Below are positions 1,420-27,108 of a stretch of 64,000 nucleotides of DNA, piece by piece. The notes beneath the pieces were generated by a model. It worked only from the letters and a program-made list of their open reading frames with translations, was not told where the DNA came from and did not search any database. Source of the DNA: a virus; IMG/VR virus record IMGVR_UViG_3300042890_001842, positions 1-64,000 of that record. One strand, written 5' to 3'. The translations under genes were made by a program, and so were the position numbers. Position 1 is the first letter of the stretch. Every line of letters begins with the position of its first letter.

Positions 1420-1448
1420 AGTCCTGAGCATGACTACTAAAACTGCTC
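1420..1448 (+). ncRNA. putative H-type pseudoknot, copy 1
   Basis: agtc-ctgagcat-gact-actaaaac-tgctc. Confidence 0.55.
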
Positions 1449-1454
1449 ACAATT

Positions 1455-1476
1455 TGTCAGACCCCTATGCTATACT
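1455..1476 (+). promoter_or_regulatory. TGTCAG-N10-TATACT promoter
   Basis: Motif followed by an (AACC)4 leader and RBS. Confidence 0.8.
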
Positions 1477-1511
1477 AACCAACCAACCAACCAAACGAAA
1501 GAGGAAAATAA

Positions 1512-1937
1512 ATGGCTAGAAACGGAAAATCTATTAGCGTGAAAATCGCTACACCAAAGGTAATCAAGGCACTAGAAACACGCCTTGCTGAATTAGAAAA
1601 GAACTACGCTACACAGGGCGAGAACGAAGCAAAGTATCAGAAAGCCCGTGATAAGTGGCAAAAAGAAATTGGCAAGTGGGCTATGTCTAACTTCTCAAAG
1701 GCTGAGAACCTTCGTACAAACTATCGTAATTGGAACAAAACTCTCAATGTAGATTTTGACCTTACAGTAAATGAGAGCGACTTCCCTAAAGAACCTGAAA
1801 AGGATTTTGAGACAATTCACCAGCACACATACAATGAGCAGAAAGAGGAAATCACGAACGCAATTCGTATCCTCAAGATGACAGATGAGGAAACAGTAAA
1901 TACCTCAACCTATAACGCTATTGCTCGTTATCTGTAA
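1512..1937 (+). CDS. hypothetical coiled-coil protein
   Basis: 141-aa ORF with strong RBS. Confidence 0.8.
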   Translation: MARNGKSISVKIATPKVIKALETRLAELEKNYATQGENEAKYQKARDKWQKEIGKWAMSNFSKAENLRTNYRNWNKTLNVDFDLTVNESDFPKEPEKDFETIHQHTYNEQKEEITNAIRILKMTDEETVNTSTYNAIARYL

Positions 1938-1947
1938 ATAAATAGTG

Positions 1948-1984
1948 GGAGGGCTAGACACACTCTAGCCCTCCATGCTATAAT
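1948..1984 (+). promoter_or_regulatory. hairpin overlapping a TAGACA-18-TATAAT promoter
   Basis: Inverted repeat ggagggctag/ctagccctcc; extended -10 TGcTATAAT. Confidence 0.6.
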
Positions 1985-2011
1985 TCGTATCCCTACTAAC
2001 AAAGGAACAAA

Positions 2012-2269
2012 ATGAAAAATCGTTATCGTATCGAAATCTATGATGATGTAAAAGCAAATGATTTGACTATTTATTCTGAGTCAAATGTAGATAAAGAATA
2101 CTTAACTGAAATGGTATTCTCTAACTTAAGACAATTCTCTGGAAACATTCGTGCATACGTATATGACAATGTAAAGAAAAAGAAAACCACTGCACTGATT
2201 CTACCAATGGAATTGTTAGCTAAATATAGAAATTACAAACTTACTTCTGATGAAATACTAATGAATTAA
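2012..2269 (+). CDS. hypothetical protein
   Basis: ORF with RBS AAAGGA. Confidence 0.7.
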   Translation: MKNRYRIEIYDDVKANDLTIYSESNVDKEYLTEMVFSNLRQFSGNIRAYVYDNVKKKKTTALILPMELLAKYRNYKLTSDEILMN

Positions 2270-2328
2270 TAATTATGAGGCGGGATCCGTGCCCGCCTCA
2301 TATTATTTTGGCCCGCAAAGGTAAGGGG

Positions 2329-2358
2329 TTATCCACAGCTTTAAGAGAGTTATCCACA
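2329..2358. promoter_or_regulatory. two DnaA boxes (TTATCCACA)
   Basis: Perfect boxes at 2329-2337 and 2350-2358. Confidence 0.65.
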
Positions 2359-2370
2359 ATCCCCGAAATT

Positions 2371-2446
2371 TGTGAGATTGATCACACGAGACAATTCGGA
2401 CAAATGACTAACAAGACTAGTAAATGTCAGTCCCCTATGTTATACT
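2371..2446 (+). promoter_or_regulatory. CRP-type site and TGTCAG-N10-TATACT promoter
   Basis: tgtga gattga tcaca at 2371-2386; tgtcag at 2425; tatact at 2441. Confidence 0.8.
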
Positions 2447-2478
2447 CAATCCAACAACCAATCGAAAGGAAATAAATT

Positions 2479-3483
2479 ATGGCTCACAATCTAGAAGTCG
2501 AAAACGGCGAAGTTGCTTTTGCGCTACGTGGAAAACCAGCATGGCACAATTTAGCAAATCGCATCTTTACACAAGATGAAGAAGTAACTACACAAACAAT
2601 GCTTGAAGAGGCAAAGTTAGCAAATTGGAATGTTCGTCTATCTCCAATCGCTGAGCACATTCCAGAATCATGGAATGATGTTTCTACTGCATCTCTTGTA
2701 TTGCGTGACAATCCATTCAATGGCGGAACTGATGTTCTTGCAACTGTTGGAAAGCGTTATAAGCCTGTGCAGAATGAAGAATTGTTTGCATTCGCTGATG
2801 CAATTCATGATGCAAACGCTGACTGTCGCTGGGAATCTGCTGGTTCTCTAAAGCAGGGCAAAGTTGTATTTGGTACTGTTGATATTCCTCGCACAATGGT
2901 GCTTGACCCTAGCGGTGCTAATGATGAAACTAAGTTGTATCTAATTGTTTGGACATCTCATGACGGGTCTGTTGCTGTTCAGGCTGCTGTTACTCCTGTT
3001 CGTGTTGTATGCCAAAACACTTTGAATCTTGCAATGCGTAATGCAAAGCAATCTTTCAAGATTCGCCACACGCAATCTGTTGAAGGTCGCATTCAAGTTG
3101 CTCGTGAGACTCTTGGTCTTGCTCTTGGATACTTTGATGAATTTGAGAAGGAAGCGCAAGCACTCTACACTCAATCAATTACTGATTCAGAATTCTCAAA
3201 GTTGATTCAAACAATCTACCCAAAGCCTGAGAAGGATTCAAAGGGTGCTTTGAAGAAGTGGGAAAACAAAGTCGTTTTGCTTGATGACCTTTACCACAAT
3301 TCACCAACGAATGCTAATATCAAGGGAACAAAGTGGGGCGCATTCAACGCTCTAACTGAACGCCTAGATTATTATCGTTCAGGACGTGGCAATTCTGAAT
3401 CACTCATGGCTGGTGCATCAGGATTTGACCCTGTTCTAACTGCTGAGAAAAACAAAATCAAGAAATTGGTTTCTGCTTTCTAA
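2479..3483 (+). CDS. DUF932 family (phage/plasmid TIGR03299-like) protein
   Basis: Motifs AWH, YKPVQN, AGSL.G, SHDGS, TPVRVVCQNTL, IRHT, GT.WGAFNA. Confidence 0.9.
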   Translation: MAHNLEVENGEVAFALRGKPAWHNLANRIFTQDEEVTTQTMLEEAKLANWNVRLSPIAEHIPESWNDVSTASLVLRDNPFNGGTDVLATVGKRYKPVQNEELFAFADAIHDANADCRWESAGSLKQGKVVFGTVDIPRTMVLDPSGANDETKLYLIVWTSHDGSVAVQAAVTPVRVVCQNTLNLAMRNAKQSFKIRHTQSVEGRIQVARETLGLALGYFDEFEKEAQALYTQSITDSEFSKLIQTIYPKPEKDSKGALKKWENKVVLLDDLYHNSPTNANIKGTKWGAFNALTERLDYYRSGRGNSESLMAGASGFDPVLTAEKNKIKKLVSAF

Positions 3484-3489
3484 ATAAAA

Positions 3490-3517
3490 AAATCCTGAGC
3501 ATGATTTAAAACTGCTC
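3490..3517 (+). ncRNA. putative H-type pseudoknot, copy 2
   Basis: aaatc-ctgagcat-gattt-aaaac-tgctc. Confidence 0.55.
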
Positions 3518-3521
3518 TCTT

Positions 3522-3595
3522 GGTTCCATAGATTAATTGGTTAGATCGCCACCCTGTCACGGTGGAGGCTACGGGTTCAAGTCCCGTTGGAATCG
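3522..3595 (+). tRNA. tRNA-Asp (GTC)
   Basis: Acceptor ggttcca/tggaatc; anticodon arm ccacc-ctGTCac-ggtgg; T-loop ttcaagt. Confidence 0.9.
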
Positions 3596-3596
3596 C

Positions 3597-3728
3597 ATGG
3601 ATAAAAAAAATTACGCTCTCGCTGCATATAGAAAAGTTAAACGTGCAGAAAAATTAAAAAAGATCAAAGAGCTTGAAGAATATAATAATAAATGCGGGCC
3701 AGTAACAATAACTAAAATAAAAAAATAA
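3597..3728 (+). CDS. small basic hypothetical protein
   Basis: ATG directly after the tRNA; the track's earlier start overlaps the tRNA. Confidence 0.4.
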   Translation: MDKKNYALAAYRKVKRAEKLKKIKELEEYNNKCGPVTITKIKK

Positions 3729-3756
3729 ATACCCGCAGAGGTAAAAGCCAAAAAAT

Positions 3757-3821
3757 TGTGTTACGAGTCACAAATAAAATCCCTGAAACCCCTTGAAAAT
3801 GTCAGTGGCATCCGCTACAAT
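3757..3821 (+). promoter_or_regulatory. CRP-like site and TGTCAG-N10-TACAAT promoter (leaderless)
   Basis: tgtgt tacgag tcaca at 3757; tgtcag at 3800; tacaat at 3816; ATG at 3828. Confidence 0.75.
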
Positions 3822-3827
3822 ACTCAC

Positions 3828-4445
3828 ATGACCAACGAACTAATATCAAGTAAATATACATTTGTCTGCGATCCAGGTGAATGTGATTCTTTAATTGAAC
3901 TAACATCATCAGATGGTTTTGGATTTCCATCTGGTGTGACAAGGCTCACATGTCCTTGTGGAAGAGAAACCACATTATTGTCAGTGGAGCATGCTACAAT
4001 ACAACCAACAACAACGGAAGAGGTAAAAATGGAAACAACTACAGATAATCACTACATGACACGAGAGTTTCTTGAGTCAGAGTTAGTTAAAAATAAGGCA
4101 CGTATCGCACAATTAGAGGAGCAGGTCCAACGTGTAACCCAGCGTGATTACGCAACTGCAGGAACTCTAAATAAGTTACGTGATGACATGAAGGTATTTA
4201 CCTTGGAAGGTCTTGATGATGATTCTATTTCAGAATATCAGGCAGAAGAGATTGCAAGCATTTGCGGGTTCGAACTAACTAATGAGTTTGAGTTGACTGT
4301 AACAGTACAGTATTCAGTTACAGTTAATGCTCGTGACGAGGAATCTGCTATCAATGCAATTCATGAGACAGATTTCGATACTGTGTCATATGATGACCCA
4401 ATTACATATATGTCTTCATCTGTTGATTCAGTAGAGGTGGACTAA
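3828..4445 (+). CDS. hypothetical protein with N-terminal Cys-rich ribbon; nested second start at 4029
   Basis: CDPGEC...CPCG; internal RBS GGAAGAGG before METTT. Confidence 0.75.
   Translation: MTNELISSKYTFVCDPGECDSLIELTSSDGFGFPSGVTRLTCPCGRETTLLSVEHATIQPTTTEEVKMETTTDNHYMTREFLESELVKNKARIAQLEEQVQRVTQRDYATAGTLNKLRDDMKVFTLEGLDDDSISEYQAEEIASICGFELTNEFELTVTVQYSVTVNARDEESAINAIHETDFDTVSYDDPITYMSSSVDSVEVD
3935..4000 (+). promoter_or_regulatory. intragenic CRP-type site and TGTCAG-N10-TACAAT promoter
   Basis: tgtga caaggc tcaca at 3935-3950; tgtcag at 3979; tacaat at 3995. Confidence 0.75.
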
Positions 4446-4648
4446 TGTATTTTGAGTTAACCGCTCCAAACCAGTCAGCCCTTCACAGGGCTTACTGGGA
4501 TGCGGAGGTAATTGGATTGGACCCTAAGTTGATTGGTTCATTGACTTTCAATATTGGAACTGGTAGCATTGAGAAAGTAAGTCGCATTCGTGACAAGCAT
4601 AACTTAACTGAAAGCTATGTCTCAGACTATGAGCCAACAGGATATTAG
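4445..4648 (+). CDS. hypothetical protein
   Basis: Translationally coupled ORF. Confidence 0.7.
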   Translation: MYFELTAPNQSALHRAYWDAEVIGLDPKLIGSLTFNIGTGSIEKVSRIRDKHNLTESYVSDYEPTGY

Positions 4649-4657
4649 GAGGATAAA

Positions 4658-4813
4658 ATGGATTATCAAGATGGATTTGAAGACGGTGTAAAATTTGCTC
4701 GTGATGTTATTATTAATAACATTAGACTATGGGCAGAGACTTCAGATGATGGTCCCGCCTTCGATGAAATTGCAGACCGTATTGAATTTGGAAAGGTAGA
4801 CTATGACCTCTGA
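4658..4813 (+). CDS. small hypothetical protein (MDYQDGFEDG...)
   Basis: Hand translation; RBS AGGAGG. Confidence 0.65.
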   Translation: MDYQDGFEDGVKFARDVIINNIRLWAETSDDGPAFDEIADRIEFGKVDYDL

Positions 4814-5012
4814 AGATCTAACTAGATGGATTGGCTGTGATCAATGCGGTACAGCCCAAGCTTTATATTTAGTTAAACTAGTAGAAGGTGAGTTATTCTT
4901 TTGTGGCCACCACTACAACGCAAGCAAACGGGGCCTTGACAAGGTCGCATATGAAATAGTAGAATTGAACAAGAAAGAAGAAGTACCACAACTAACAGAA
5001 ATGGCGGAATAA
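4803..5012 (+). CDS. small Zn-binding protein of an actinobacterial type
   Basis: CDQCG.AQA...GELFFCGHH. Confidence 0.7.
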   Translation: MTSEDLTRWIGCDQCGTAQALYLVKLVEGELFFCGHHYNASKRGLDKVAYEIVELNKKEEVPQLTEMAE

Positions 5013-5014
5013 CA

Positions 5015-5419
5015 ATGGGAGATAGAGCAAACTTCGTATTCGTACAACCAAGCGGAGAAACAATTGTATTGTACTCACACTGGGGTGGACATCAAATGCT
5101 AGCAAATTTAGCAGAGGCAGTAGCCAAGGCACAACCACGCTGGTCTGACCCTTCATATGCAACACGCATTGCTATCAGTCAAATGATTGGTGATGGCTGG
5201 GCATTTGAAACAGGCTGGGGTTTAAATGTTAACTCAATTGGAGACAACGAGCACAAGATTCCAGTAATCGACTGGGGGCAGATGACGTTTAGTCTACACG
5301 AGGAAGACTCATTCCATAATCTTGATAACAAGGTTCGTGGCATGAAGAATGAAGCAATCTTTACTCAGGACCTGCGTTCGTTTGTAGAGAAATACTCTGA
5401 CGTTCCAATCCTAGTTTAA
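5015..5419 (+). CDS. hypothetical phage protein
   Basis: MGDRAN...LYSHWGG. Confidence 0.75.
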   Translation: MGDRANFVFVQPSGETIVLYSHWGGHQMLANLAEAVAKAQPRWSDPSYATRIAISQMIGDGWAFETGWGLNVNSIGDNEHKIPVIDWGQMTFSLHEEDSFHNLDNKVRGMKNEAIFTQDLRSFVEKYSDVPILV

Positions 5420-5522
5420 TTAATTAAAGGTGCCTCTATAGTCATCCAATGCGTTATGGCCAGGGGTTAAATAAAGCAGAGTTCTTTTACTTTCGTTGGT
5501 GATTCTCTAGCAGCCTTATGTA

Positions 5523-5556
5523 AAGCCCCAGCTCTGCCCCTGCAGCTGGGGTTTTT
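5523..5556 (+). terminator. intrinsic terminator
   Basis: Stem ccccagct/agctgggg followed by TTTTT. Confidence 0.7.
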
Positions 5557-5576
5557 ATATTGGCCCGCAAGAACTG

Positions 5577-5606
5577 AGGATAGCATAGACTATTTACGAG
5601 AGTCAA
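5577..5606 (-). promoter_or_regulatory. leftward sigma-A-like promoter TTGACT-18-TATCCT
   Basis: Reverse complement of aggata...agtcaa with TG extension. Confidence 0.45.
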
Positions 5607-5626
5607 TATATTTTCCTGAAATTTTG

Positions 5627-5710
5627 TGTGATCTTGACCACAAAGCTTGGAAAATGTGGTGTGGAACACACCAATAAAGTATTCCAAATGTCAGTGGGTC
5701 ATGTTACAAT
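5627..5710 (+). promoter_or_regulatory. two CRP-like sites and TGTCAG-N10-TACAAT promoter
   Basis: Sites at 5627-5642 and 5655-5670; tgtcag at 5689; tacaat at 5705. Confidence 0.75.
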
Positions 5711-5737
5711 TAAGCCATATCAACGAAAGGATATCAA

Positions 5738-6478
5738 ATGCCGAACTGGGTATATAATGGTTTGACTATCGAAGGCAAGCCTGAATCTGTAAAATCTCTT
5801 ATGGAGCAAATGAATAAGCCATTTGTTAAATTGCATGATACTTGGAATTCAACAACTCATCAAATGGAAGTAAAGCAAACTACTTATCCTAATCCTGTAT
5901 TTGCTTTTCATAATATCTATAATCATTTAGATGCTGGTATTACTGATGAGGAATACTTAAAACAACCTGACCATTCCCTCCCACTTGCAGAGGCTATGAA
6001 ATTTCAGGGCAACCATTGGTATGACTTCAATGTCCGTGAATGGGGCACAAAATGGGATGTTGGTGTTCATTCAGATGATAAGTATCCTGATACTACTGTA
6101 GAGGATGCTGTTAATGGTGAGAATCATGTAGTCCATTATAATTTTAATACCGCTTGGTCTCGTCCTATGCCAGCCTTAATTAAACTATCATCTCAATACC
6201 CTGACCTTCTATTTACTTTATCATATGAGGAAGAGACAGGCTGGGGCGGAGAGTTAGAAATTCTTCGTGGCGTAGTTATCTCAGAATCAGAATATGACAA
6301 TATGTGTCGTGACTGTGATGCAACTGACCAAATGGAATACTGCGAGAACGAATGCGGTGAAATCTGTGGCAACTGTAATTGGCTAGGAGAGGCTGACCTA
6401 GAGGCTGTCAAAGAATGTCAGACCCATAGTATATACTTAGAAACCAAAGTACCTGAATATAGAAAGGCGGAAGCATGA
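5738..6478 (+). CDS. DUF1281/YubB ferredoxin-like family protein with C-terminal Cys cluster
   Basis: MPNW.N.L.I.G, WY.....WGTKWD, F.TAWS.P. Confidence 0.8.
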   Translation: MPNWVYNGLTIEGKPESVKSLMEQMNKPFVKLHDTWNSTTHQMEVKQTTYPNPVFAFHNIYNHLDAGITDEEYLKQPDHSLPLAEAMKFQGNHWYDFNVREWGTKWDVGVHSDDKYPDTTVEDAVNGENHVVHYNFNTAWSRPMPALIKLSSQYPDLLFTLSYEEETGWGGELEILRGVVISESEYDNMCRDCDATDQMEYCENECGEICGNCNWLGEADLEAVKECQTHSIYLETKVPEYRKAEA

Positions 6479-6627
6479 GAACTATTGATGAATTAGTTAA
6501 TGAGATGTACATGGACAATGAGGCACATCTTGAATATATGGAGAACATGAACGGTGGGGATTGTGATTGTGGAATCCACACTACATTAAACACAATTGTT
6601 AAATACTGGTGGGATGAGGAGAAATAA
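6475..6627 (+). CDS. small hypothetical protein
   Basis: ATGA overlap; hand-translated 50 aa. Confidence 0.6.
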   Translation: MRTIDELVNEMYMDNEAHLEYMENMNGGDCDCGIHTTLNTIVKYWWDEEK

Positions 6628-6812
6628 TGCTAGGTTATGAAATGGCAGATGTAGATGAAATGATTAACTCAGTGCATGATGCTAAACTATTTTATCTTAG
6701 ATCTCCGTCAGATTTGGTTGACAAGCAACCATTAATTGACGGGTTAGAGAAGACAGTTAGTTTTCTCCAAGGACTATTAGAAGAAGGGCATTTTGATGGA
6801 TATCAAGACTGA
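6627..6812 (+). CDS. hypothetical protein
   Basis: Coupled ORF. Confidence 0.65.
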   Translation: MLGYEMADVDEMINSVHDAKLFYLRSPSDLVDKQPLIDGLEKTVSFLQGLLEEGHFDGYQD

Positions 6813-7008
6813 TTATCTAATTGAATATATGAAGATTCATTTAATTTCAATTGAGCAGGATTTAGAAAATATTGCTCAGGAAATGGAAGAATTAGACCCT
6901 GAATCTAAAGCTTGTAAAGAATTAGATTATGAGTATAACTACTTATCAGGACAGTCTATTGTAACCCGCCATTATTTGTCAGTGGCTAATGATAGAATGT
7001 CATCATGA
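6793..7008 (+). CDS. hypothetical protein
   Basis: ORF in operon. Confidence 0.65.
   Translation: MMDIKTDYLIEYMKIHLISIEQDLENIAQEMEELDPESKACKELDYEYNYLSGQSIVTRHYLSVANDRMSS
6977..6998 (+). promoter_or_regulatory. TGTCAG-N10-TAGAAT promoter (leaderless)
   Basis: ATG at 7005 follows the -10 after a 6-nt gap. Confidence 0.7.
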
Positions 7009-7277
7009 ATATATTAGAACTAGAACCACATCTGCAAAAGCAGGTAGACGCTGGGTCCTCTGGGACCGACATACTGCATGGGCACCTAAAGGTTCTCATG
7101 TTGGACGCAGAACGCCAATTAGAATTGGCACAATCGGCAGAAGATATATCTGGAGAAGCAATGGATTCCATGGAGCGGAAATACTGGGAAGGCGTCCTAG
7201 ACGCTTATGGAGATATATACGCAATGACATATGCATTAGCATTTGCTATAGATGACAGGAGTAAAAACAATGGCTGA
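7005..7277 (+). CDS. hypothetical protein
   Basis: ORF with phage-like composition. Confidence 0.7.
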   Translation: MNILELEPHLQKQVDAGSSGTDILHGHLKVLMLDAERQLELAQSAEDISGEAMDSMERKYWEGVLDAYGDIYAMTYALAFAIDDRSKNNG

Positions 7278-7623
7278 ATTAGATCTATTAGAAAAGACAC
7301 GTATGCAAGATGTACATAGAGATATTAATATAATCATTGATAAGATAACTAAACTTGGTGTCTTCCCTCCCCTGGTTTGGGTATGGTCATGGGATGTTGC
7401 TATGTCTATCTATACAGACATTCAGGAAGGTGGCGACCCTGACCTATGTGTATCTAAAGATGAAGATGAGATGTGGGAACTATTCTACACTCAGGCGGAC
7501 AAGAACGGGTTCACACTAGAGTACGGCGCAGAAGACCTATATGAGGCTGTCAGAGATTGGATGATTGACGAAGAGGTCGTAGAATACTATAATGAGGAGG
7601 AGGACGAAGATGAAGATGAGTGA
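7270..7623 (+). CDS. acidic hypothetical protein
   Basis: RBS AGGAG before MAELD. Confidence 0.7.
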   Translation: MAELDLLEKTRMQDVHRDINIIIDKITKLGVFPPLVWVWSWDVAMSIYTDIQEGGDPDLCVSKDEDEMWELFYTQADKNGFTLEYGAEDLYEAVRDWMIDEEVVEYYNEEEDEDEDE

Positions 7624-7753
7624 TGAATTTATCAATGATCAACTAAACAAAGCACAAAAGCTTTTGTGGGGTGGTAGCGAAACAGAGAACATCGAAGCAC
7701 ACAACATCATTGCTAAACTAATTAAAGACAGGATGCCTAATGACGAAGTTTAA
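7610..7753 (+). CDS. small hypothetical protein
   Basis: Hand translation; RBS GGAGG; fills the gap between neighbours. Confidence 0.55.
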   Translation: MKMSDEFINDQLNKAQKLLWGGSETENIEAHNIIAKLIKDRMPNDEV

Positions 7754-7976
7754 AGTATTTGGAGACATGCTCTTCACATTCTTCATGGATGTAGAAGCAG
7801 ATTCGCCTGATGAGGCATGGGACATTGCTAATAAGGCAGAGACTCATGAATGGACTCAGATTCTAGAAGACAAGACAGTTGAGGTCCACTTCGTTGAAGA
7901 AGTTGAAACTGAACTTGAAGACGGGTATCCGTCAATGAATAATGAAATAATCATAACTGAAGGACAAGATTCCTAA
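7740..7976 (+). CDS. acidic hypothetical protein
   Basis: VEA.S..EA motif. Confidence 0.65.
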   Translation: MTKFKVFGDMLFTFFMDVEADSPDEAWDIANKAETHEWTQILEDKTVEVHFVEEVETELEDGYPSMNNEIIITEGQDS

Positions 7977-8065
7977 AGGCGGTGGGCCTGCAGGAGGGGT
8001 ATTTACAAATTCCCTAAATTCGTATATAATATACATAACAACTCGATCTAGAAAGGATCAAACAA

Positions 8066-8212
8066 ATGGCAACAAAGCGTGAATATCTAGCAAGCAAGGG
8101 CATTACTGTAGGAAAGCGTGGACGTTTTTCATCAGCAGCAAAGCAAGCTCTTTCTGAGGCAGAAAAGCAAGGCGTGAAGTTTACTACAGAGGCACCTACC
8201 TCAAAGAAGTAA
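8066..8212 (+). CDS. Lsr2-like DNA-binding peptide (48 aa)
   Basis: MATKREYLASKGITVGKRGRFS resembles the Lsr2 C-terminal R.WA...G..V..RGR motif; own TTTACA-17-TATAAT promoter and RBS GAAAGGA. Confidence 0.7.
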   Translation: MATKREYLASKGITVGKRGRFSSAAKQALSEAEKQGVKFTTEAPTSKK

Positions 8213-8241
8213 TACAACTTAATAACGGAGGGCTGGCTAAA

Positions 8242-8263
8242 TGTCAGCCCTTCGTGATATAAT
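8242..8263 (+). promoter_or_regulatory. TGTCAG-N10-TATAAT promoter inside a hairpin
   Basis: Ninth copy of the motif. Confidence 0.75.
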
Positions 8264-8286
8264 GGCGGTTCTACGAAAGGCGGAAT

Positions 8287-8505
8287 ATGAGAAAACGAAC
8301 CAAAGTAGATAAAGTAATAGACCAACTGGAAGAAATCCTAAATGACTTCCATTTCCACCCAGCACTAATGGCAAATATAATCACAACTACATATCCACCC
8401 TATACACAACAAAAACTAATTGAACTAATCAAGTATATCGAACGGTATCACAATGAGGAAATCCAATTAGATAAAACATGTGGAACCCAACAATACAGTA
8501 AATAA
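8287..8505 (+). CDS. hypothetical protein
   Basis: RBS ACGAAAGGCGG. Confidence 0.7.
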   Translation: MRKRTKVDKVIDQLEEILNDFHFHPALMANIITTTYPPYTQQKLIELIKYIERYHNEEIQLDKTCGTQQYSK

Positions 8506-8517
8506 CTAAATAGGCAT

Positions 8518-8560
8518 AAAGGCAGATTGATGTTTAAATAAACATTGATTTGCCTTTTTT
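8518..8560 (+). terminator. intrinsic terminator
   Basis: aaaggcagattgatgttt/aaacattgatttgcc followed by a T run. Confidence 0.7.
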
Positions 8561-9287: not shown

Positions 9288-9302
9288 TGGTTCCCGCCTT
9301 TT

Positions 9303-10118: not shown

Positions 10119-10126
10119 ATTTATAT

Positions 10127-18858: not shown

Positions 18859-18887
18859 GATAAATTAATTATACCTTATAATGTATC

Positions 18888-19950: not shown

Positions 19951-20164
19951 TACTGTTTACAGATATTTTTTCTGACATTCCCCAAGAATTGTTTTTAAAT
20001 AAACCTTTAATGCTTGTGTATCCTGATGGATCTTTTTTCCATATAATTAGATCATAGTTCTCCCAGTACGGAGATATGTCTTTTGCTCTCTTGATAAAGA
20101 GATTTACACCTAATTCGTTAAGCTTTAGCATGCCATCCTTAATGACTAAACCGCAGCATCCCAC
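19904..20164 (-). CDS. hypothetical protein
   Basis: ORF; likely start MLKLN. Confidence 0.6.
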   Translation of the reverse strand: MGCCGLVIKDGMLKLNELGVNLFIKRAKDISPYWENYDLIIWKKDPSGYTSIKGLFKNNSWGMSEKISVNSIGVWELPKKYVKYFK

Positions 20165-20205
20165 TACTATAAATTATACAGGAGATACTACGGCTGTGTC
20201 AATGC

Positions 20206-21072
20206 TTATTTGATAAAAGTTCCGTTCCATACGGACTTTTTTACTGGCTCTTCCTTATCCTTTTCATCATAGGACTTTTCAATTGGTACGCAGTTTGGAA
20301 CCATTCTTCCATTCTTATCTTTCATGCCCTCTTGCTTATATCCAGTCCAGCATGCTTTGGTTAGATTATCCCACTTATCCTCTTCTTCGTTATCTGATTC
20401 ATACTCTTCGCCATTTTCATCTTTTGACTTTGTTACTGGCCAATTTACTTCATTTTTCATTGGATCTCCTACTGGAGCTGGGTTTGAAGAATTTGAATCC
20501 TCAACTTCCATTTCTTCAGAATTGGACTCTTCTTCATCCTCTTCCTCTGGAACCTCCAACATTGATTCAATAGCTTCCGTTAAATGCTCAATAATTGCAT
20601 ACATTTGTTCACGTGTTACTTCTGGGCGTAGAGCCTTTGTAATCTCTTCATCATCTGGAATTTCAATTACCTTATCAATTGGATTTACTGCATCATCAAG
20701 GATATCCTTAATTTCATCAAACATTTCTTGTTGTGAGTATGACTTCTTCATATTTTTCTCTCTCTCTACAATTTTTCTTGACCATGAAAATCCTGCATCT
20801 CCACCCCATGCCAACCACATAATCTTTCCGTTGGAAGGACTTTCAGAGTTGTCCCAATCTTTACCTTTTTTATCTACCTCATGGCGAGAAAAATAAGAAT
20901 ACATACGCTTAACTGTAGATAAGCTTAGAGTCTCTCCTCTTGACAACTGACCTGCTCTTGTCCAGCCTACTGCTGTTCCAGCGCCTTTTGCTTTACCCTG
21001 CTCCTTAAGCTTAATAGCTCTACGAGCAGCAGACTGCATTCCTGATGTTGGTTTGTATCCTTCTTTAGCCAT
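20206..21072 (-). CDS. phage head-associated/morphogenesis-like protein
   Basis: AARRA..GTAVG..RA.QL..LS.STVKRM.SYFSRH...W.AWGGD domain and CW.GY...G.K...VPNCVP motif, both typical of phage head-region genes. Confidence 0.65.
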   Translation of the reverse strand: MAKEGYKPTSGMQSAARRAIKLKEQGKAKGAGTAVGWTRAGQLSRGETLSLSTVKRMYSYFSRHEVDKKGKDWDNSESPSNGKIMWLAWGGDAGFSWSRKIVEREKNMKKSYSQQEMFDEIKDILDDAVNPIDKVIEIPDDEEITKALRPEVTREQMYAIIEHLTEAIESMLEVPEEEDEEESNSEEMEVEDSNSSNPAPVGDPMKNEVNWPVTKSKDENGEEYESDNEEEDKWDNLTKACWTGYKQEGMKDKNGRMVPNCVPIEKSYDEKDKEEPVKKSVWNGTFIK

Positions 21073-21220
21073 TTGATTTCTCCTTAACGCTAATTACTTT
21101 AACATTTTTGACTTCATCATCTACGCCAAAAATATCGTTAGCGTAGTCAATAGCATCTTCAGAAGAAAATGCTTCTACTTCAGCATTAATTTCTATCTTG
21201 ACGCTATAAATATTCATTTA

Positions 21221-21820
21221 CTATTTACCGCAGGTTGGGCAAACACCATTAGATGCTACTATTGGCTTAGCTGCTCCTCCAGATTTAAACTTAGGGCGAC
21301 CAAATCCTACAATAGAAACCATTACTCCCGCTTTGTTTTTCTTATAAGCACGTAATTGTTTGCATGTTTCTCCGCCATTTCTTTGGCTTCCCTTTTTATT
21401 TGAAGATGTATTTCCTTCGATACACCAAACTGTTCCATCTTCGTTGTCCTCAATAACAATTCCTACATGAGAAACTCTATCGACGCCATCTGAAGGGAAA
21501 TCAAAATAGGCGATATCTCCTGGCTCTGGATCTGCAATGTCTCCATCGATCCATGCATTAGCTTTTTTAAATGCCGTTACTCCTGCTGGAGTGTAAACTG
21601 TATTTGGAATCTTTACGCCACTTTCGTTCCCAACCCAATTAACGAAACTTCCGCACCATGGTTGGAAGTTAGCTTTTGTATAAGCACCGTACTTTGTTTC
21701 GTTATCTTTAGGACCTTCAATGTATCCTACTTGAGACTTGGCAACTTGAATTAATCTAGCAGCTGTTCCTTTTGGAGCTTTTGCAGATTCTGCTGGAACT
21801 GGAAAGTTATCTGTTGTCAT
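21221..21820 (-). CDS. CHAP-domain endolysin
   Basis: PWCGSFV, PGDI.F, HVGIV, IEGNT. Confidence 0.85.
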   Translation of the reverse strand: MTTDNFPVPAESAKAPKGTAARLIQVAKSQVGYIEGPKDNETKYGAYTKANFQPWCGSFVNWVGNESGVKIPNTVYTPAGVTAFKKANAWIDGDIADPEPGDIAYFDFPSDGVDRVSHVGIVIEDNEDGTVWCIEGNTSSNKKGSQRNGGETCKQLRAYKKNKAGVMVSIVGFGRPKFKSGGAAKPIVASNGVCPTCGK

Positions 21821-22230
21821 TATTCTTTATCCCAATCTGTATCAACTGGTTGTTCTGCTGGCATTGCACCATCTGGCTTTGCTGCCAAACGTGCCTGTGT
21901 TGCATCAATTTCTGCTTCAAGCTTTTTGTCTGCTTGTGTGTTCTTTGCATCCATTTCTTTATTAGCCAACTGTGCTGACATAATATCTTTAGCACCAGAT
22001 TGACCAATCAATAATCCTGCAAGTGTTCCTGTAATAAATGTAGCAACTGATCCAAGAACATTAAAGAACATCTTGTCGTTCTCAGATTGTGCTCCTACTG
22101 GTTGTGTAACAAACAAAAGACCATATAGAATTCCTAGTGATGTGCACAACAAAATTGTTCCAAGTGTAATGCCAAGAATAAACTTTAGTCTAGCATCTAA
22201 GTCTTGTGGTGTTAATTTTTCTTTAGCCAT
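21820..22230 (-). CDS. two-TM membrane protein (holin candidate)
   Basis: Two TM helices; adjacent to endolysin. Confidence 0.6.
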   Translation of the reverse strand: MAKEKLTPQDLDARLKFILGITLGTILLCTSLGILYGLLFVTQPVGAQSENDKMFFNVLGSVATFITGTLAGLLIGQSGAKDIMSAQLANKEMDAKNTQADKKLEAEIDATQARLAAKPDGAMPAEQPVDTDWDKE

Positions 22231-22450
22231 TATTTACCTTTGTCTTTTGGTACTCATCCCATGTCGTTTGTCCTACTAGATCTCTGGAGCATGTACCAGT
22301 TGTTTCGCAAATTGGAGGATTACATTCTTTTAATTCCCAATTTTCTGGATCTTGGCAGGCATAACGAAAGCTTCCATCATAACCACACGATGTAATTGTG
22401 AGGGCTAGCATTAAGCTAGCTAATGAGGCACCTATTTTTCTCATATACAT
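22223..22450 (-). CDS. Cys-rich lipoprotein
   Basis: Lipobox-like ITSC; RYACQDP.NW..C.PP.C..G.C. Confidence 0.7.
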   Translation of the reverse strand: MYMRKIGASLASLMLALTITSCGYDGSFRYACQDPENWELKECNPPICETTGTCSRDLVGQTTWDEYQKTKVNNG

Positions 22451-22460
22451 ATTATATCAT

Positions 22461-22655
22461 TTACTCTTCTTTTCTCAATGGTATGGTTATTAGCCAAATA
22501 GCGGTAGCTACCATGGTAGCTAATCCTACAATTTGCTGTGCCGTTCCAGTAAGAGTTAGCCAGGCAATAAAAAATCCAAGAAGTGTCCAAACCTGTGCAA
22601 TACTTTCTTTTACTGCCTCCCAGATCCAATTTAAGAATCCTTTAATTATCTTCAT
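22461..22655 (-). CDS. small two-TM membrane protein
   Basis: Hydrophobic ORF. Confidence 0.65.
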   Translation of the reverse strand: MKIIKGFLNWIWEAVKESIAQVWTLLGFFIAWLTLTGTAQQIVGLATMVATAIWLITIPLRKEE

Positions 22656-24700
22656 TATATCCTCCTAGTCATGGCTGCTGCCACAATATTTCCTGCAATT
22701 ATCACTGGAATTACTACTTCCTGTGCTTTTTCTCTTTGATCATCTGTCATATCTTTACCCCACTCTGATGGGCTAAATACTTTTTCAAAGTCTATATCCA
22801 ATATAGCGCCTATTGGATCTGCCAAAAATGCCTCTGTTTGTACCTCTGTAGTGGCATCTGCTAATGTGTAAGGCATGGTTGCTCCTTCGGAAGCTGCCTC
22901 TCTGTCTTTAAATTCCACAAATGCAGTTGCTAATTCGGGATTAGATTTCATTGCTTCTGCAATTACTGCGACCTCAGATGACTTAATTCCAAGATCTTCT
23001 GCAACTTCAGCCTTTGCTTCATTTGTTAGTGCACTTAATGTTTGACTAACTGCAGCAATTTGTTCTTTAGAAAGTACAACTAGTTTATTATCTTTGCTTG
23101 TTAGATTAGCTATAACTCCAGAAAGATCTTCTGAAGTTCCCTCGCCTTTTTCTGGGATAAGTGCTGCTAATTCTTCATCTTTAATCTCAACATTGTCGGT
23201 TGGTTCTGGTGTTGGCTCAACCACTGGCTCTTCAGTTGGCTCTGGTTCTGGTGTTGGGTCTACAGTAGGTTCAGGTGTAGGTTCAGGTGTAGGTTCGGGT
23301 GTAGGATCTTCTGTAGGCTCTTCTGTAGGCTCAGGAGTTGGTTCTTCTGTTGGCTCTTCAGTTGGCTCTGGGCTTGGTTCAGGTGAAGGCTCAGGACTTG
23401 GGTCCTCAGTTGGTTCTGGATCTGGTGTGGTGTCAGGGGAAGGTTCTGGTGTTGGTTCTGGTGTTGGTTGATTTGCTGCTGCTTGTGCTAAAGCACTAGC
23501 TATCTCTCTGGCCTTTTGTTCTTCATAGTAACGCCATGCGTTATCAATAGAACTATTTAAATCACTAATAGATTGATCGTATGTAGTTTGTGAATTTATT
23601 TTATTTTCATTTGCATGTGTAAGGTTTTGATTTGCAAGTGTGAGGTTTTGATTTGCAAGTGTGAGGTTTGATTGTGAGGTTTGTAAGACTTGAAGTTCTT
23701 GATTATAAATAAATAGTTTATCGTTATAAACTTCTTGTGCTGATTGCTGTGAAGCTACAGCAATATTATAAGCATTAATTTGCTCTTGAGTTGCTCCAGA
23801 TCCAGAAGAAAATGTATTAAGATCACAGCTAAATCCTACACCCCATCCACCAGTATAATCACATCCAGCGCCAGTCCAACCTCCAGGAATTGCCCATCCA
23901 AGATGATATGAACCTGGACCTCCGCCGTTGTACCACCATATTTCTACATTTAAAGTTTTATTTTGACTAACATCATATATTGGAGAAAATGGACTCCAAG
24001 TAGCTCCTTGCTCACGCCAGTTATTTACTGCAAGATTTCCATCTACATACATTTTAAAACCATCATCTGTATATCCTGCAAAATATGTAGATGTCCAATG
24101 TGATGGTACTGTAATTCGTCCAGTAAATTTAACTATAATATTTTCATACCTATTTCCACAAACTGGAAGCTGCATAGAATTTGAATTCCATGTGCCACTA
24201 CATAAAACTTCATCTGGAGTAGCGCCAGCCTGCGTTCTAACTAAGCTATATACAGTATATTGAAGTCCTTCACCACCAGCACTTTGAATATTATATTGTG
24301 CTGTTTGAAGGTTTATATTTGCTATACCAAGGGCATCCTGAGCATTATTTTTATTAGTTAAAGCTAAATCTACTGTGACAGTTTGTCCATCTACTGTTGA
24401 TTGTGCTAAATTCTTTTGTGCTAAAGCTTCTGTTTCTGCTTCCACCGCATCATCGTATGCAATTGAGGCGCTATCCCTTAATTCTTTTGCAGCAACAGTT
24501 GCTTCATATTTATTTTCCGCAATATCTATTAAGGATATAAAATCGTCCTTATAATTTAAATTGTCTACACTATTGTTTAATTTTTGTATTTCTTGAGCAG
24601 CTAAGCTTAATGGATCATCGCTATGTGCTGGGGTTATGAAAAGCCAACCAAAGCCTAAAATAGCTGTTAGCGTTAATCTCCATGCTTTAGTCCTAGTCAA
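22655..24700 (-). CDS. surface protein: signal peptide, PA14-like domain, Pro/Glu/Thr stalk, C-terminal anchor
   Basis: FTG.I.VP...TDDGF..YVDG...NNW.EQ...WYNGGG. Confidence 0.8.
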   Translation of the reverse strand: MTRTKAWRLTLTAILGFGWLFITPAHSDDPLSLAAQEIQKLNNSVDNLNYKDDFISLIDIAENKYEATVAAKELRDSASIAYDDAVEAETEALAQKNLAQSTVDGQTVTVDLALTNKNNAQDALGIANINLQTAQYNIQSAGGEGLQYTVYSLVRTQAGATPDEVLCSGTWNSNSMQLPVCGNRYENIIVKFTGRITVPSHWTSTYFAGYTDDGFKMYVDGNLAVNNWREQGATWSPFSPIYDVSQNKTLNVEIWWYNGGGPGSYHLGWAIPGGWTGAGCDYTGGWGVGFSCDLNTFSSGSGATQEQINAYNIAVASQQSAQEVYNDKLFIYNQELQVLQTSQSNLTLANQNLTLANQNLTHANENKINSQTTYDQSISDLNSSIDNAWRYYEEQKAREIASALAQAAANQPTPEPTPEPSPDTTPDPEPTEDPSPEPSPEPSPEPTEEPTEEPTPEPTEEPTEDPTPEPTPEPTPEPTVDPTPEPEPTEEPVVEPTPEPTDNVEIKDEELAALIPEKGEGTSEDLSGVIANLTSKDNKLVVLSKEQIAAVSQTLSALTNEAKAEVAEDLGIKSSEVAVIAEAMKSNPELATAFVEFKDREAASEGATMPYTLADATTEVQTEAFLADPIGAILDIDFEKVFSPSEWGKDMTDDQREKAQEVVIPVIIAGNIVAAAMTRRI
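23198..23468 (-). repeat. PEPT/EEPT low-complexity coding repeat
   Basis: Visible roughly 12-bp periodicity. Confidence 0.85.
23622..23670 (-). repeat. 21-bp tandem coding repeat (NLTLANQ)
   Basis: ggttttgatttgcaagtgtga twice plus a partial copy. Confidence 0.8.
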
Positions 24701-24751
24701 CTATAACTCCTAAACAAACAGTTTGTTTACTTAGTTAATTATAACATGAAA

Positions 24752-25798
24752 CTATTTAGAACCTATTTCGCTAATCTTAGCTTTAGAAAACTTAAGCATT
24801 TTTGCACCTAGCGGAGAGTATCCTAAGTCTGCTGCTTTTTTGCCACAAGTATTTGCCATATAATCAAAAAACTTTTTTACAGATTCGTTATGTAAAGATT
24901 TTTCTTTGGACGCTATGCCATATGTAAATGTAGATATGGGATAAGCAAGCTTGTTAACAGTCTTATAGTTTACTTTAACTATACCCTTTTCGTCCATTGA
25001 AAAATCGCTTAAGAATACTGATGCTGCAGAAACTGTAGGCTGCATGTACCTTCCAGATTCATTTTGTATTGATGCCATTTTAAGGCCTCTTGCATATGAT
25101 ATTTCGTTATATCCAATAGAACCATTTGTTTGCGTCAAAACCATAGCCACTCCGTAGGATCCAGAAGCACTCATCATAAATGGATTACTACTTATTGATC
25201 CAGGAAATGATGAAGAGAAGTTTTTGTTGCCAGCCTTTGCCCATATACTTGGGGCAACGACATTTAAATAAGATGTAAATACTTCTGATGTTCCAGATCC
25301 ATCTACCCTGTAAGCAACTCTTATTGGGGTAGAAGGTATTTTAGGTTCTTTACCACCAATTAAATTTTCTTTTAAAATTTGAGGGTCATTCCATTTTGTT
25401 ATTTTTCCAGAAAATATTTTGGCCAATGTATCTGTACTCATCTTTATAGTTACTTTATATCCGTCTAGTCTATAAATTATTCCTATTGGACCAGCAACCA
25501 AAGGAACGTAAACAAATTCTTTTGTTGGTCTAACTTCTGATCCAGAGTACGGGACATCTGACATTGCAAAATTTGCTATACCATTTGAAAACATATTTTT
25601 TCCAGCTCCAGAACCATTTGGAGAATATGTTACAGAATCTCCACCAGACTTTACAAACTCAACTCTACATCTATCTATAAAGTTGGCAGCAAAAGTAGAT
25701 CCAGATCCAGTAATAGGTTCTGCGTTTGATGTGTTAATTAAAAAAACATTAGACAATAAGACTAATGTTGCTGTGACTACAATCAGTTTTAGTTTCAT
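24752..25798 (-). CDS. pstS: phosphate ABC transporter substrate-binding protein
   Basis: GSGSTF, GSGAG, FAMSD, IFSGKITKWNDP, R.DGSGTS, YPI. Confidence 0.95.
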   Translation of the reverse strand: MKLKLIVVTATLVLLSNVFLINTSNAEPITGSGSTFAANFIDRCRVEFVKSGGDSVTYSPNGSGAGKNMFSNGIANFAMSDVPYSGSEVRPTKEFVYVPLVAGPIGIIYRLDGYKVTIKMSTDTLAKIFSGKITKWNDPQILKENLIGGKEPKIPSTPIRVAYRVDGSGTSEVFTSYLNVVAPSIWAKAGNKNFSSSFPGSISSNPFMMSASGSYGVAMVLTQTNGSIGYNEISYARGLKMASIQNESGRYMQPTVSAASVFLSDFSMDEKGIVKVNYKTVNKLAYPISTFTYGIASKEKSLHNESVKKFFDYMANTCGKKAADLGYSPLGAKMLKFSKAKISEIGSK

Positions 25799-25837
25799 AT
25801 ATCAATAATACATCACATAATACTAAAATCATATATA

Positions 25838-25870
25838 AAATGGTTAACTAAGAATTAAATGCAAGTGAAC
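25838..25870 (-). promoter_or_regulatory. PHO-box-like 11-bp direct repeats
   Basis: GTTCACttgca / TTTAATtctta / GTTAACcattt upstream of pstS. Confidence 0.55.
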
Positions 25871-25874
25871 TTTA

Positions 25875-26063
25875 TTATTTAGGATTATCAGTTTTATAAA
25901 ATCCGTTACCTTTAAATTGTATACCAAATGATGTGAAATGTCTTACCATATCTGATTCACATTCGACGCATGTGTAACCTGGGTCCTCATCTGTTATAGG
26001 TCTGTGCACTGACATTGTTGCGTGTGCATCATCGTATGAGCATTTGTATTCGTATACTGGCAT
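25875..26063 (-). CDS. FmdB-family Zn-ribbon protein
   Basis: MP.YEYKC...C..C...FKG.GFY.TD. Confidence 0.85.
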   Translation of the reverse strand: MPVYEYKCSYDDAHATMSVHRPITDEDPGYTCVECESDMVRHFTSFGIQFKGNGFYKTDNPK

Positions 26064-26650
26064 TAAAAATCAACCTTTTCCATCATAGACTCATCAACAT
26101 CGCATGTTATATTGATTACAACTGAAAACCTTAAGTTGTTATTTTTTGGATACTCCCAATTATGGAATATATCCCCATCAAAAAATAAAGCATGTCCAGC
26201 TTTTGGGGTAAATGATTTAAATGTCTCTAGTCCCTTTGGATCTATAACATCTCCAGTGTATCTTTGTCTAAACAAGTTGGTGCTTCCGTCTGAATCATTT
26301 GCGTAATACACAAAATTATAATTTTTCTTAACTCTTCTTAAATCTACATGTGGCTCCATTGGCCTATTATCTGTAGATTTAAAAGTAAGGTTTGCTCTAC
26401 TTCTTAGTATTTCATTTATTACTACTTTGTTTTTATCTGCAAACTTTTTTATTAAAAAATTAACAACATCAGAATTCAGATTGCTATTTAGCATTATGCC
26501 AGTATCAGAAAAAGTATCATCTGTTAGACCAGTTACTCCGTCTTTTGCCGTTCTTATGGACGGATGAAAAACATATGGAAGGGTGAATAGATATGAATTT
26601 ACATAATCCATATCTGTTTTATTTAAGAAATTGTTTGTATATAAGTACAT
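26063..26650 (-). CDS. 2OG-Fe(II) oxygenase
   Basis: PHVD, YY.NDSDG.T, FDG..H, R. Confidence 0.8.
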   Translation of the reverse strand: MYLYTNNFLNKTDMDYVNSYLFTLPYVFHPSIRTAKDGVTGLTDDTFSDTGIMLNSNLNSDVVNFLIKKFADKNKVVINEILRSRANLTFKSTDNRPMEPHVDLRRVKKNYNFVYYANDSDGSTNLFRQRYTGDVIDPKGLETFKSFTPKAGHALFFDGDIFHNWEYPKNNNLRFSVVINITCDVDESMMEKVDF

Positions 26651-26656
26651 ACTAAG

Positions 26657-27061
26657 CTACTTAATATTTTTTCTTGCTCTAGCCAAAGCATCAAAATCTT
26701 TTACTTTGGTTTCCCCCATATATCCCCATGCGTGGCCATCTGCAATCATTTTTTCATTTAATGATATTGATGCCCCGTCAAGGAATACCCAACCTAAAAT
26801 GCGACCATATTTTTCGGACGAGTCCATTTTTTCTGTTTTAATTACAATTGATTTGGCAGAATCAATTTCATTCTTTAGATAAGCTTTCGCTTCTAGGCCA
26901 AGCGCTTTTTCGATCTTGTCAGTTGTTCTGCTCTCTGGAGTATCAATTCCAGCAAGCCTAACTCTTGAGCTAAAAGAAATATCAAATCCGAGGTCAATGT
27001 CTACATCGATTGTGTCTCCATCTACAACTTTAGTAACTTTCTTAACATAATACTCAAACAT
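26657..27061 (-). CDS. thermonuclease (SNase-like)
   Basis: VVDGDTID, VRLAGIDTPE, KYGRIL. Confidence 0.9.
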   Translation of the reverse strand: MFEYYVKKVTKVVDGDTIDVDIDLGFDISFSSRVRLAGIDTPESRTTDKIEKALGLEAKAYLKNEIDSAKSIVIKTEKMDSSEKYGRILGWVFLDGASISLNEKMIADGHAWGYMGETKVKDFDALARARKNIK

Positions 27062-27080
27062 GATTCTCCTTAATATTTAG

Positions 27081-27108
27081 GAGCAGTTTTTAGACTTGCT
27101 CAGGTCTA
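27081..27108 (-). ncRNA. putative H-type pseudoknot, copy 3
   Basis: tagac-ctgagcaa-gtcta-aaaac-tgctc on the - strand. Confidence 0.55.

Follow-up and report, generated by a model that had tools for sequence, protein, structure and literature searches.

The 64,000-nucleotide window studied here, positions 1-64,000 of the 112,011-bp IMG/VR virus record IMGVR_UViG_3300042890_001842, carries three copies of a compact H-type RNA pseudoknot that, judged from its sequences, is a new and abundant RNA family of a known architectural kind, with a function that we propose from its position. Both helices of the motif are proven by covariation across hundreds of independent sequences, and the motif is anchored to the stop codon of the gene upstream. 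We suggest, as a reading that is quite possible though we would not call it probable, that the motif is a compact triplex pseudoknot serving as a roadblock to processive RNases, whose main task would be to cap the upstream message at its 3' end. The initial annotation, which had been made from the letters of the window, listed a nuclease block and a processing signal among the possible roles, and the genomic context indeed points to an end-protecting or processing role.

All three copies share the layout P1 (4-5 nucleotides (nt), last base C), CU, GAGCA, A/U, P1' (first base G), 5-8 nt ending in AAAC, and UGCUC, with P1 and P2 denoting the stems and L1 to L3 the loops. Copy 1 (1420-1448, plus strand) is composed of P1 AGUC/GACU (1420-1423/1432-1435), L1 CU (1424-1425), P2 GAGCA/UGCUC (1426-1430/1444-1448), L2 U1431 and L3 ACUAAAAC (1436-1443). 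Copy 2 (3490-3517, plus strand) has P1 AAAUC/GAUUU (3490-3494/3503-3507), the same L1, P2 (3497-3501/3513-3517) and L2, and an L3 of AAAAC (3508-3512). In copy 3 (27081-27108, minus strand), P1 is UAGAC/GUCUA (27108-27104/27095-27091) and L2 an A, while L1 CU, P2 GAGCA/UGCUC (27101-27097/27085-27081) and L3 AAAAC recur. The initial annotation had placed three copies of this anatomy at these positions, which direct reading of the sequence corroborated; the composite pattern has three matches in the window and none in 100 dinucleotide-preserving shuffles. A covariance model, whose seed included copies 2 and 3, with copy 1 outside the seed, scored copy 2 at 45.8 bits, copy 3 at 42.3 bits and copy 1 at 34.1 bits (E 2.8e-7), the next-best site in the 64 kb reaching 10.9 bits. 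The single additional copy in the whole record, at 110166-110190 and identical to copy 1, is a direct-terminal-repeat duplicate of the latter. Since the two are offset by 108,742 nt, a direct terminal repeat of up to ~3.27 kb is indicated (window 1-3269/genome 108743-112011); copy 1 lies within it and copy 2 ~220 nt beyond. As initially described, all three window copies are intergenic, on the sense strand and 3' of a stop codon, from which P1 is separated by 15, 6 and 40 nt in copies 1, 2 and 3, respectively. A search of the window against Rfam 15 at the gathering threshold returned two tRNAs only and no match to the motif, and at E<=10 no match modelling it was obtained in three 3-kb loci or in 61-nt windows around copies 1 and 3, the best hit being the unrelated DUF3800-II at 12.5 bits. 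With no description of the motif found in the literature searched either, the earlier remark that its sequence matches no recognized family stands.

An exact-pattern scan of IMG/VR yielded at least 149 matches in at least 119 loci, 148 copies forming the aligned set; the earlier label of a three-copy element, right as a count for the window, understates a very large family spread across phages. Among the matches listed, 101/149 have an identical 23-nt spacing and 135/148 form at least three contiguous P1 pairs. P1, 4 bp long in the main class and mostly AU-rich, is free in sequence, with 40 versions among the 148 aligned copies and all Watson-Crick pair types at each of its three variable positions. 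P2 was assessed by a scan for the P1 hairpin, CCU...G and AAAC without a P2 requirement, which gave 169 canonical and 47 non-canonical copies. In 36/47 of the latter, P2 pairs in 5/5 positions, versus ~2/5 on average in shifted controls, and in 17 both P2 strands are changed in a fully compensatory manner (GGACA/UGUCC, AGACA/UGUCU, GGGUA/UACCC, GGGCG/CGCCC, AAGCA/UGCUU, AGGCA/UGCCU, AAAUA/UAUUU, GAGUA/UACUC, GGGCA/UGCCC); one-sided P2 changes are nearly all G-U wobbles. Pair counting found double changes at 9/10 pairs, all five P2 pairs among them, and the covariation score of 0.478 (0.145 in shuffles) was exceeded in 0/500 and collapsed upon sliding the partner column. In a 2x2 test over the whole of IMG/VR, the matched combinations GAGCA + UGCUC and GGACA + UGUCC occurred in at least 119 and at least 120 loci, respectively, and the mismatched combinations GGACA + UGCUC and GAGCA + UGUCC in 3 and 4. 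The H-type pseudoknot that had initially been read from three sequences is thereby upheld by compensatory changes in both helices. The tolerance of G-U wobbles, together with the 92:9 co-orientation with upstream genes described below, indicates that it is the sense-strand RNA that folds.

Constant in all recovered copies are the C-G closing pair, L1 = CU and the last four L3 nucleotides AAAC, although the main search patterns themselves demanded these three features; additional copies found by structure only also carry them, and a structure-only scan without the closing-pair requirement still gave C-G in 215/250. The eight invariant nucleotides are grouped in the loops and the junction. The 8-nt hairpin loop reads C-U-R-R-R-Y-R-W (phage type CUGAGCAW), L3 has the consensus N-W-A-A-A-C and is followed by U, and L2 is U in 83, A in 57, C in 7 and G in 1 of the copies. 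The base after P2 is A in 71% of copies, with C at +2 in only 44% and C at +3 in only 37%; G is depleted at the two positions following P2, as expected if an extension of P2 into L1/P1 must be avoided. Nested folding detected no more than a weak P2 hairpin (-5 to -6 kcal/mol; z-scores -1.3 to -2.5), so that thermodynamic prediction is blind to the motif. In one locus (L122:7395-7575), three tandem copies lie within ~170 nt past a single stop codon, separated by GC-rich, hairpin-forming spacers of 40-50 nt.

The motif is co-oriented with its flanking genes (upstream 92:9, downstream 87:13), and in intergenic spacers of at least 100 nt it lies within 20 nt of the stop in 61/128 cases but within 40 nt of the next start in only 15/128. 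With each of 166 upstream protein clusters entered once, the interval between the stop and the first base of the loop had both its floor and its mode at 9 nt, with 21 clusters at 9 nt, 11 at 10 nt, 23 at 11-13 nt and only 3/166 at 0-8 nt; the 9-nt floor corresponds to a spacer of ~5 nt plus the 4-nt P1 strand. The GGACA class, fetched independently, has no copy closer than 9 nt to the stop and 15 at exactly 9 nt. In 46% of clusters, over 30 nt separate the motif from the closest stop of an open reading frame (ORF) of at least 60 aa. Towards the next gene, the minimum distance to the start is 15-17 nt, with the Shine-Dalgarno sequence (SD) 8-12 nt 3' of P2. The GenBank gene calls of cyanophage S-EIVl illustrate both limits, 5/7 copies lying 4-10 nt past a stop and 19-25 nt before the next start; these five belong to the operon of SSB, DNA polymerase and ThyX. 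The minimum spacings match how far a terminating ribosome extends downstream and an initiating one upstream, as known from footprint and toeprint data, so that the knot appears packed as tightly as possible while still folded.

Sites of RNA cleavage are frequent just behind the motif. In ~22 loci a tRNA, mostly tRNA-Asp but also tRNA-Arg, -Ser, -Asn or -Gly, starts 2-13 nt 3' of the motif; no tRNA lies directly 5' of it among the examined loci. A complete type III hammerhead ribozyme is found 1-8 nt past the motif in three loci (L150 (7240-7322, minus strand), L146 and L008), and the Rfam DUF2800 RNA starts 1 nt past it in two others (L175:5432-5592 and L197:5051-5208). Locus L150 carries a second hammerhead (RF00008, 50.5 bits) ~200 nt upstream. 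Extended -10-like boxes (TGnTAnnnT) are enriched ~3-fold 10-40 nt past the motif but not before it, and a promoter just upstream was accordingly discarded as an explanation. An intrinsic (Rho-independent) terminator was rejected as well, as P1 is only 4-5 bp of mostly AU-rich sequence, P2 is followed by A and then C/U without a U run, and terminator-like sites are not enriched (19 downstream versus 16 upstream of 246 copies). We also dismissed a partner protein: when 5,075 ORFs taken from 238 loci were clustered all against all, no protein family was present in more than 26 loci (11%), and the flanking genes are unrelated, those upstream ranging from ribonucleotide reductase to head proteins.

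Taken together, the lack of a partner protein, the occurrence in phages of many phyla, the freedom of P1 and the several P2 types, and the ribosome-avoiding placement suggest a self-contained physical device, and hosts in many phyla are what is expected of a device that is independent of its host. In the proposed structure, the minor groove of the 4-5 bp P1 would be filled by the A-rich L3 (...AAAC) and the major groove of the 5-6 bp P2 would be crossed by L1 (C-U), with a one-nucleotide junction between the helices; we infer these triplex contacts by analogy with BWYV-type (beet western yellows virus) pseudoknots. Minimal, doubly buttressed H-type pseudoknots resist helicases, and a knot of this kind would act in cis as a self-contained, mechanically robust element. 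Positioned just beyond the footprint of the terminating ribosome (~5 nt past the stop) and outside that of the initiating ribosome (at least 17 nt before the start), it could stay folded while both cistrons are translated. Downstream cleavage, whether by host endonucleases, by a hammerhead next to the motif or by RNase P at a neighboring tRNA, would leave the knot a few bases from the new 3' end, where it would halt 3'-to-5' exonucleases short of the stop codon and keep the upstream cistron intact. Because RNase P or hammerhead cut sites often lie just behind the motif, and because the motif hugs the stop rather than the next start, a 3' cap seems the most economical reading. Precedents for parts of this scheme exist: in the 3'-end module of MALAT1 and MEN-beta, a triple helix followed by the tRNA-like mascRNA that is cut by RNase P, a compact element just 5' of a cleavage site likewise becomes a protected 3' end, and the RNase III intercistronic sites of T7 are punctuation in polycistronic phage messages. 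The MALAT1/MEN-beta fold is a different one, the phage motif involving no poly(A)/U-rich triplex and its presumed function being read from position only, and the duplex of RNase III sites is also missing from it.

Several points weigh against a 3' cap. The direction of protection is deduced only from position and the abutting cut sites, and coremin, the closest look-alike studied experimentally, blocks 5'-to-3' rather than 3'-to-5' enzymes. In ~7 homologous loci and at copy 3, an extended -10-like box lies just upstream, which would place the knot at a 5' end. There is no enrichment at convergent gene ends (13/100), and loci with an intrinsic terminator behind the motif (L137, L143) would seem to have no need of a 3' cap. 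A 3' end would be guarded by an ordinary GC-rich hairpin as well, and the strict conservation of L1 (CU) and L3 (AAAC) may hint at something more specific.

The closest known folds are coremin-type exoribonuclease-resistant RNA (xrRNA) and the BWYV-type frameshift pseudoknot, although the full definition of neither applies, and each lends itself to a rival explanation. The main rival, unlikely in our estimate, holds that the motif is a coremin-like block to 5'-to-3' machines (RNase J, 5'-end-dependent RNase E scanning, or ribosomes arriving from upstream) that would protect the downstream cistron, tRNA or noncoding RNA. Coremin (xrRNA-C) is known from beny-, cucumo- and other RNA viruses, together with its Watson-Crick variant xrRNA-WCC (Dilweg et al., PMC6546385, PMC10520033, PMC10321173); its parts are a hairpin of 4 bp closed by C-G, a loop with C at its start, the spacer ...UUAAACU and, in the Watson-Crick variant, a loop-spacer pseudoknot, and it stalls both Xrn1 and ribosomes and stimulates frameshifting (PMC10520033, PMC10321173). 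A 5'-to-3' exoribonuclease stalled by coremin halts one nucleotide before the first hairpin. The phage motif resembles it in that its first hairpin has 4 bp, with variable inner pairs and a conserved closing C-G, its loop opens with C and pairs with the spacer to give a small H-type pseudoknot, and its spacer reads ...UUAAAC-U, so that the first hairpin plus spacer by which coremin is recognized is present. Its core nearly matches the coremin motif GUCCGAAGACGUUAAACUAC (PMC10520033, PMC10321173), 102/351 phage copies begin with GUCC, and the 11-mer GACGUUAAACU that beet necrotic yellow vein virus carries is found verbatim in 22/351. The location just past stop codons or between genes is also shared, xrRNAs being found at the start of viral 3' untranslated regions, and the copies just 3' of a -10-like box, copy 3 included, would sit at a 5' end as this explanation demands. 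On the other hand, the phage loop has 8 nt with G in third place, versus YGAD (4 nt) or YGNNAD (6 nt) with G in second place in coremin, and P2 has 5-6 canonical pairs compared with 3, or non-canonical ones. The second hairpin that coremin needs for Xrn1 resistance is missing, as hairpins of at least 4 bp starting at most 3 nt past the motif occur in 30/338 copies versus 42-62/338 at seven control offsets; with this obligatory hairpin absent and a longer Watson-Crick P2, the phage motif is not a member of the coremin family. The carriers are, moreover, double-stranded DNA phages of bacteria, which to our knowledge have no Xrn1. Cleavage 2-8 nt downstream, at the 5' end of a tRNA or by a hammerhead, would separate the knot from the very RNA to be protected, and promoter-like boxes are enriched past the motif, not before it. 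By analogy, the motif may nonetheless work like coremin, and perhaps from either side, as a 'firewall' that keeps decay from passing between cistrons.

The second look-alike suggests a translation device acting on the terminating or post-termination ribosome, which could uncouple cistrons by blocking 70S sliding or re-initiation, or tune termination or recoding at the stop upstream; we consider this improbable. The architecture is that of BWYV-type frameshift pseudoknots (a first stem S1, an L1 of two nucleotides of which the first is C, a one-nucleotide junction and an L3 rich in A; PMC10321173). As in the luteovirus-type -1 frameshifting pseudoknots of BWYV, potato leafroll virus and pea enation mosaic virus, S1 has 4-5 bp and L3 has 5-8 nt that would lie in the S1 minor groove, and the compact H-type fold begins ~5-7 nt past the ribosomal A-site codon, the ~5-6 nt between stop and P1 matching the spacing of frameshift and read-through stimulators. 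In the phage motif, however, the A-site codon is a stop without a slippery heptamer, and no overlapping -1 frame exists, as the loop UGA and the U-AA of L3 close two of the three frames; we rejected recoding because no ORF continues through the motif. P2 is 5 bp rather than 3 bp long, the motif is often followed by a tRNA or ribozyme, as copy 2 is by a tRNA, and fixed spacing is not required, given the clusters located more than 30 nt from a stop. The 20-aa ORF of one bacterial family, which stops at the loop UGA, would be in favor of a translational role, whereas a general function of this UGA as an in-frame stop was discarded, since it holds only in that small micro-ORF family. Just as improbable is a processing site, whether a tiny ribozyme that cleaves itself or a pseudoknot that resembles a tRNA acceptor and is cut by RNase P or RNase Z, in which P2 would be stacked on P1 with U at -1, G at +1 and A after P2. 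Invariant loop nucleotides, covarying stems, a pseudoknot and distribution over many phyla are the criteria by which Weinberg et al. (PMC5737381) single out 'biochemically sophisticated' RNAs; like hammerhead and twister ribozymes, the motif is scattered and multi-copy in phages, it adjoins hammerheads and the DUF2800 RNA, and the three tandem copies of L122 could release small RNAs. Yet we know of no natural self-cleaving ribozyme of ~28 nt, and a second cutter would be redundant beside a hammerhead or RNase P site. The tRNA-like acceptor pseudoknot of turnip yellow mosaic virus ends in 3' ACCA; in the phage motif the A after P2 is frequent, but ACC(A) occurs in a minority and CCA is not conserved, the element is internal in the DNA, and P2 varies freely in sequence between classes. 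A preQ1-I-like mini-aptamer, or an operator of a phage or host RNA-binding protein regulating the flanking genes, is in our view a poor candidate. The preQ1-I, SAM-II and fluoride aptamers do share its topology, the invariant nucleotides, eight in number, in loops and junction would befit a binding site, and CUCCU in copy 3 can alternatively pair with the SD AGGAG. The resemblance to preQ1-I (RF00522) that had been noted initially is borne out for the ~30-nt H-type topology, the short P1 and the A-rich tail (...AAAAC-U), which in preQ1-I docks in the P1 minor groove, but not beyond: neither RF00522 nor any other Rfam aptamer model matched at E<=10, the SD lies outside P2 instead of being sequestered, and queuosine genes are not found nearby. 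The single nucleotide of L2, the equivalent of the ligand-reading C of the preQ1-I loop, is variable, a conserved expression platform and a co-occurring protein (238 loci) are lacking, and the flanking genes are unrelated. Hardly conceivable, finally, is an element acting at the DNA level, be it a promoter, an N4-like single-stranded DNA hairpin promoter, an origin or a recombination site. A short conserved intergenic sequence would suit it, and covariation as such fails to separate RNA from single-stranded DNA; however, the one-sided G-U wobbles of the sense strand would be A-C mismatches on the other strand, co-orientation with transcription is strong, and the position is set by ribosome footprints.

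Returning to the nuclease roadblock, a bolder version, which we entertain with more reserve than the cap itself, is that the motif represents the first RNA class in bacterial viruses to resist both exoribonucleases and helicases: a 28-nt 'firewall' knot, independent of the host and used across most bacterial phyla as a universal fix for RNA ends, with the coremin xrRNA found in plant and fungal RNA viruses as its homologue or as a striking case of convergence, or, less likely, the smallest natural self-cleaving ribozyme. If the roadblock reading is true, a single small and portable RNA module would punctuate polycistronic messages and define where they end in phages of very different hosts, filling a gap in the picture of phage gene expression; it would also provide synthetic biology with a ready-made 28-nt stabilizer or insulator part, and link the RNA biology of bacterial viruses to the xrRNAs and frameshift pseudoknots of eukaryotic RNA viruses. 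Whatever its function, an abundant and strongly covarying RNA is missing from the current family catalogue, and its inclusion would annotate many phage and prophage intergenic regions. Cultured systems for tests are at hand in Synechococcus phage S-EIVl (7 copies), Mycobacterium phage Labelle, Arthrobacter phage Molivia and Bacillus phage Edson.

Cultured carriers further include Bacillus phage WH1 and Paracoccus phage ParMal1; none of them has the site annotated, and in each it follows a coding sequence closely; in Molivia the order is SSB, motif, tRNA-Gly. The hosts of the motif belong to many bacterial phyla. In cellular genomes it is sporadic, with copies clustered within a few kb, and further samples contained it in 2/400 Patescibacteria and 0/400 Bacillota, on which grounds we rejected a cellular, non-mobile element. 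Some exact-pattern matches, in Pseudomonas coding regions and in Thalassarchaeaceae, lack P1 and are due to chance. Three 'genomic' matches (L201:5037-5599, L235:3030-3863 and L200:5980-6096) turned out to be CRISPR spacers holding the whole motif, in arrays with 36-37-nt repeats and a 70-76-nt period; Cloacimonadota, a cyanobacterium and another bacterium have thus taken spacers from motif-bearing phages. In metagenome-assembled genomes of Aminicenantes, Thermodesulfobacteriota, Spirochaetota and Anaerolineae, the motif coincides with the end of a conserved, stand-alone micro-gene with a strong SD, encoding a ~20-aa peptide (M-K-R-F-x-x-P-R-x-A-H-C-x-E-G-C-x-x-x-S) whose stop is the loop UGA (UCC-UGA-GCA). 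Its synonymous codon variation indicates that it is translated, and it is often located where two genes converge, with a terminator behind it in some cases (L126, L156, L171 (7521-7600, minus strand), L204, L205, L214, L220, L162, L166, L174, L137/L143).

Within the window, copy 1 follows a 70-aa ORF (1192-1404, plus strand) whose TAA stop lies 15 nt 5' of it. The promoter that had been assigned downstream of this copy is reduced to an extended -10-like sequence, TGCTATACT, at 1468-1476, for which a consensus promoter scan gave no call, while the other two downstream features named in the initial annotation, tRNA-Asp and the nuclease with its AAGGAG-ATG, were recovered. Copy 2 lies between a DUF932 gene (phrog_1221; 2479-3483, plus strand), whose TAA stop is 6 nt 5' of P1, and tRNA-Asp(GUC) (3522-3596, plus strand), which starts 4 nt past the copy and thereby places an RNase P cut site directly behind the pseudoknot; the same order of DUF932 gene, motif and tRNA-Asp recurs in ~17 other phage loci. 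Copy 3 is preceded by an Hsp20-family gene (27149-27559, minus strand), a neighborhood found in 14 loci, and followed after 19 nt by the SD and ATG of a staphylococcal-nuclease-like endonuclease gene (phrog_452; 26657-27061, minus strand), where the AAGGAG-ATG is located. Between the hsp20 stop and copy 3, the sequence reads as a 10-bp hairpin with a UUCG tetraloop and a 2-nt bulge (27111-27136, minus strand), and 5' of it lies the extended -10-like TGTATAAT (27148-27141, minus strand), again without a call in the promoter scan; if this box were a promoter, the UUCG hairpin and copy 3 would together make up the 5' leader of the nuclease mRNA. The CUCCU mentioned above overlaps the 3' strand of P2 in copy 3 and can pair with the nuclease SD AGGAG across an 8-nt loop (27066-27083, minus strand), an arrangement confined to copy 3 and its close homologues that would hide the SD when the pseudoknot is unformed.

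The phage itself is a distant relative of the Streptomyces Samistivirus group, its DnaE-type polymerase (39014-42283, minus strand) being 57% identical to the enzymes of Streptomyces BE-cluster phages; Streptomyces phage Samisti12, the closest cultured relative by DnaE, has no copy of the motif. Besides the Hsp20-family gene, the window encodes a PstS-like phosphate-binding protein (24752-25798, minus strand), and these two genes, the DnaE relationship and the low G+C content suggest an aquatic, low-GC actinobacterial host.

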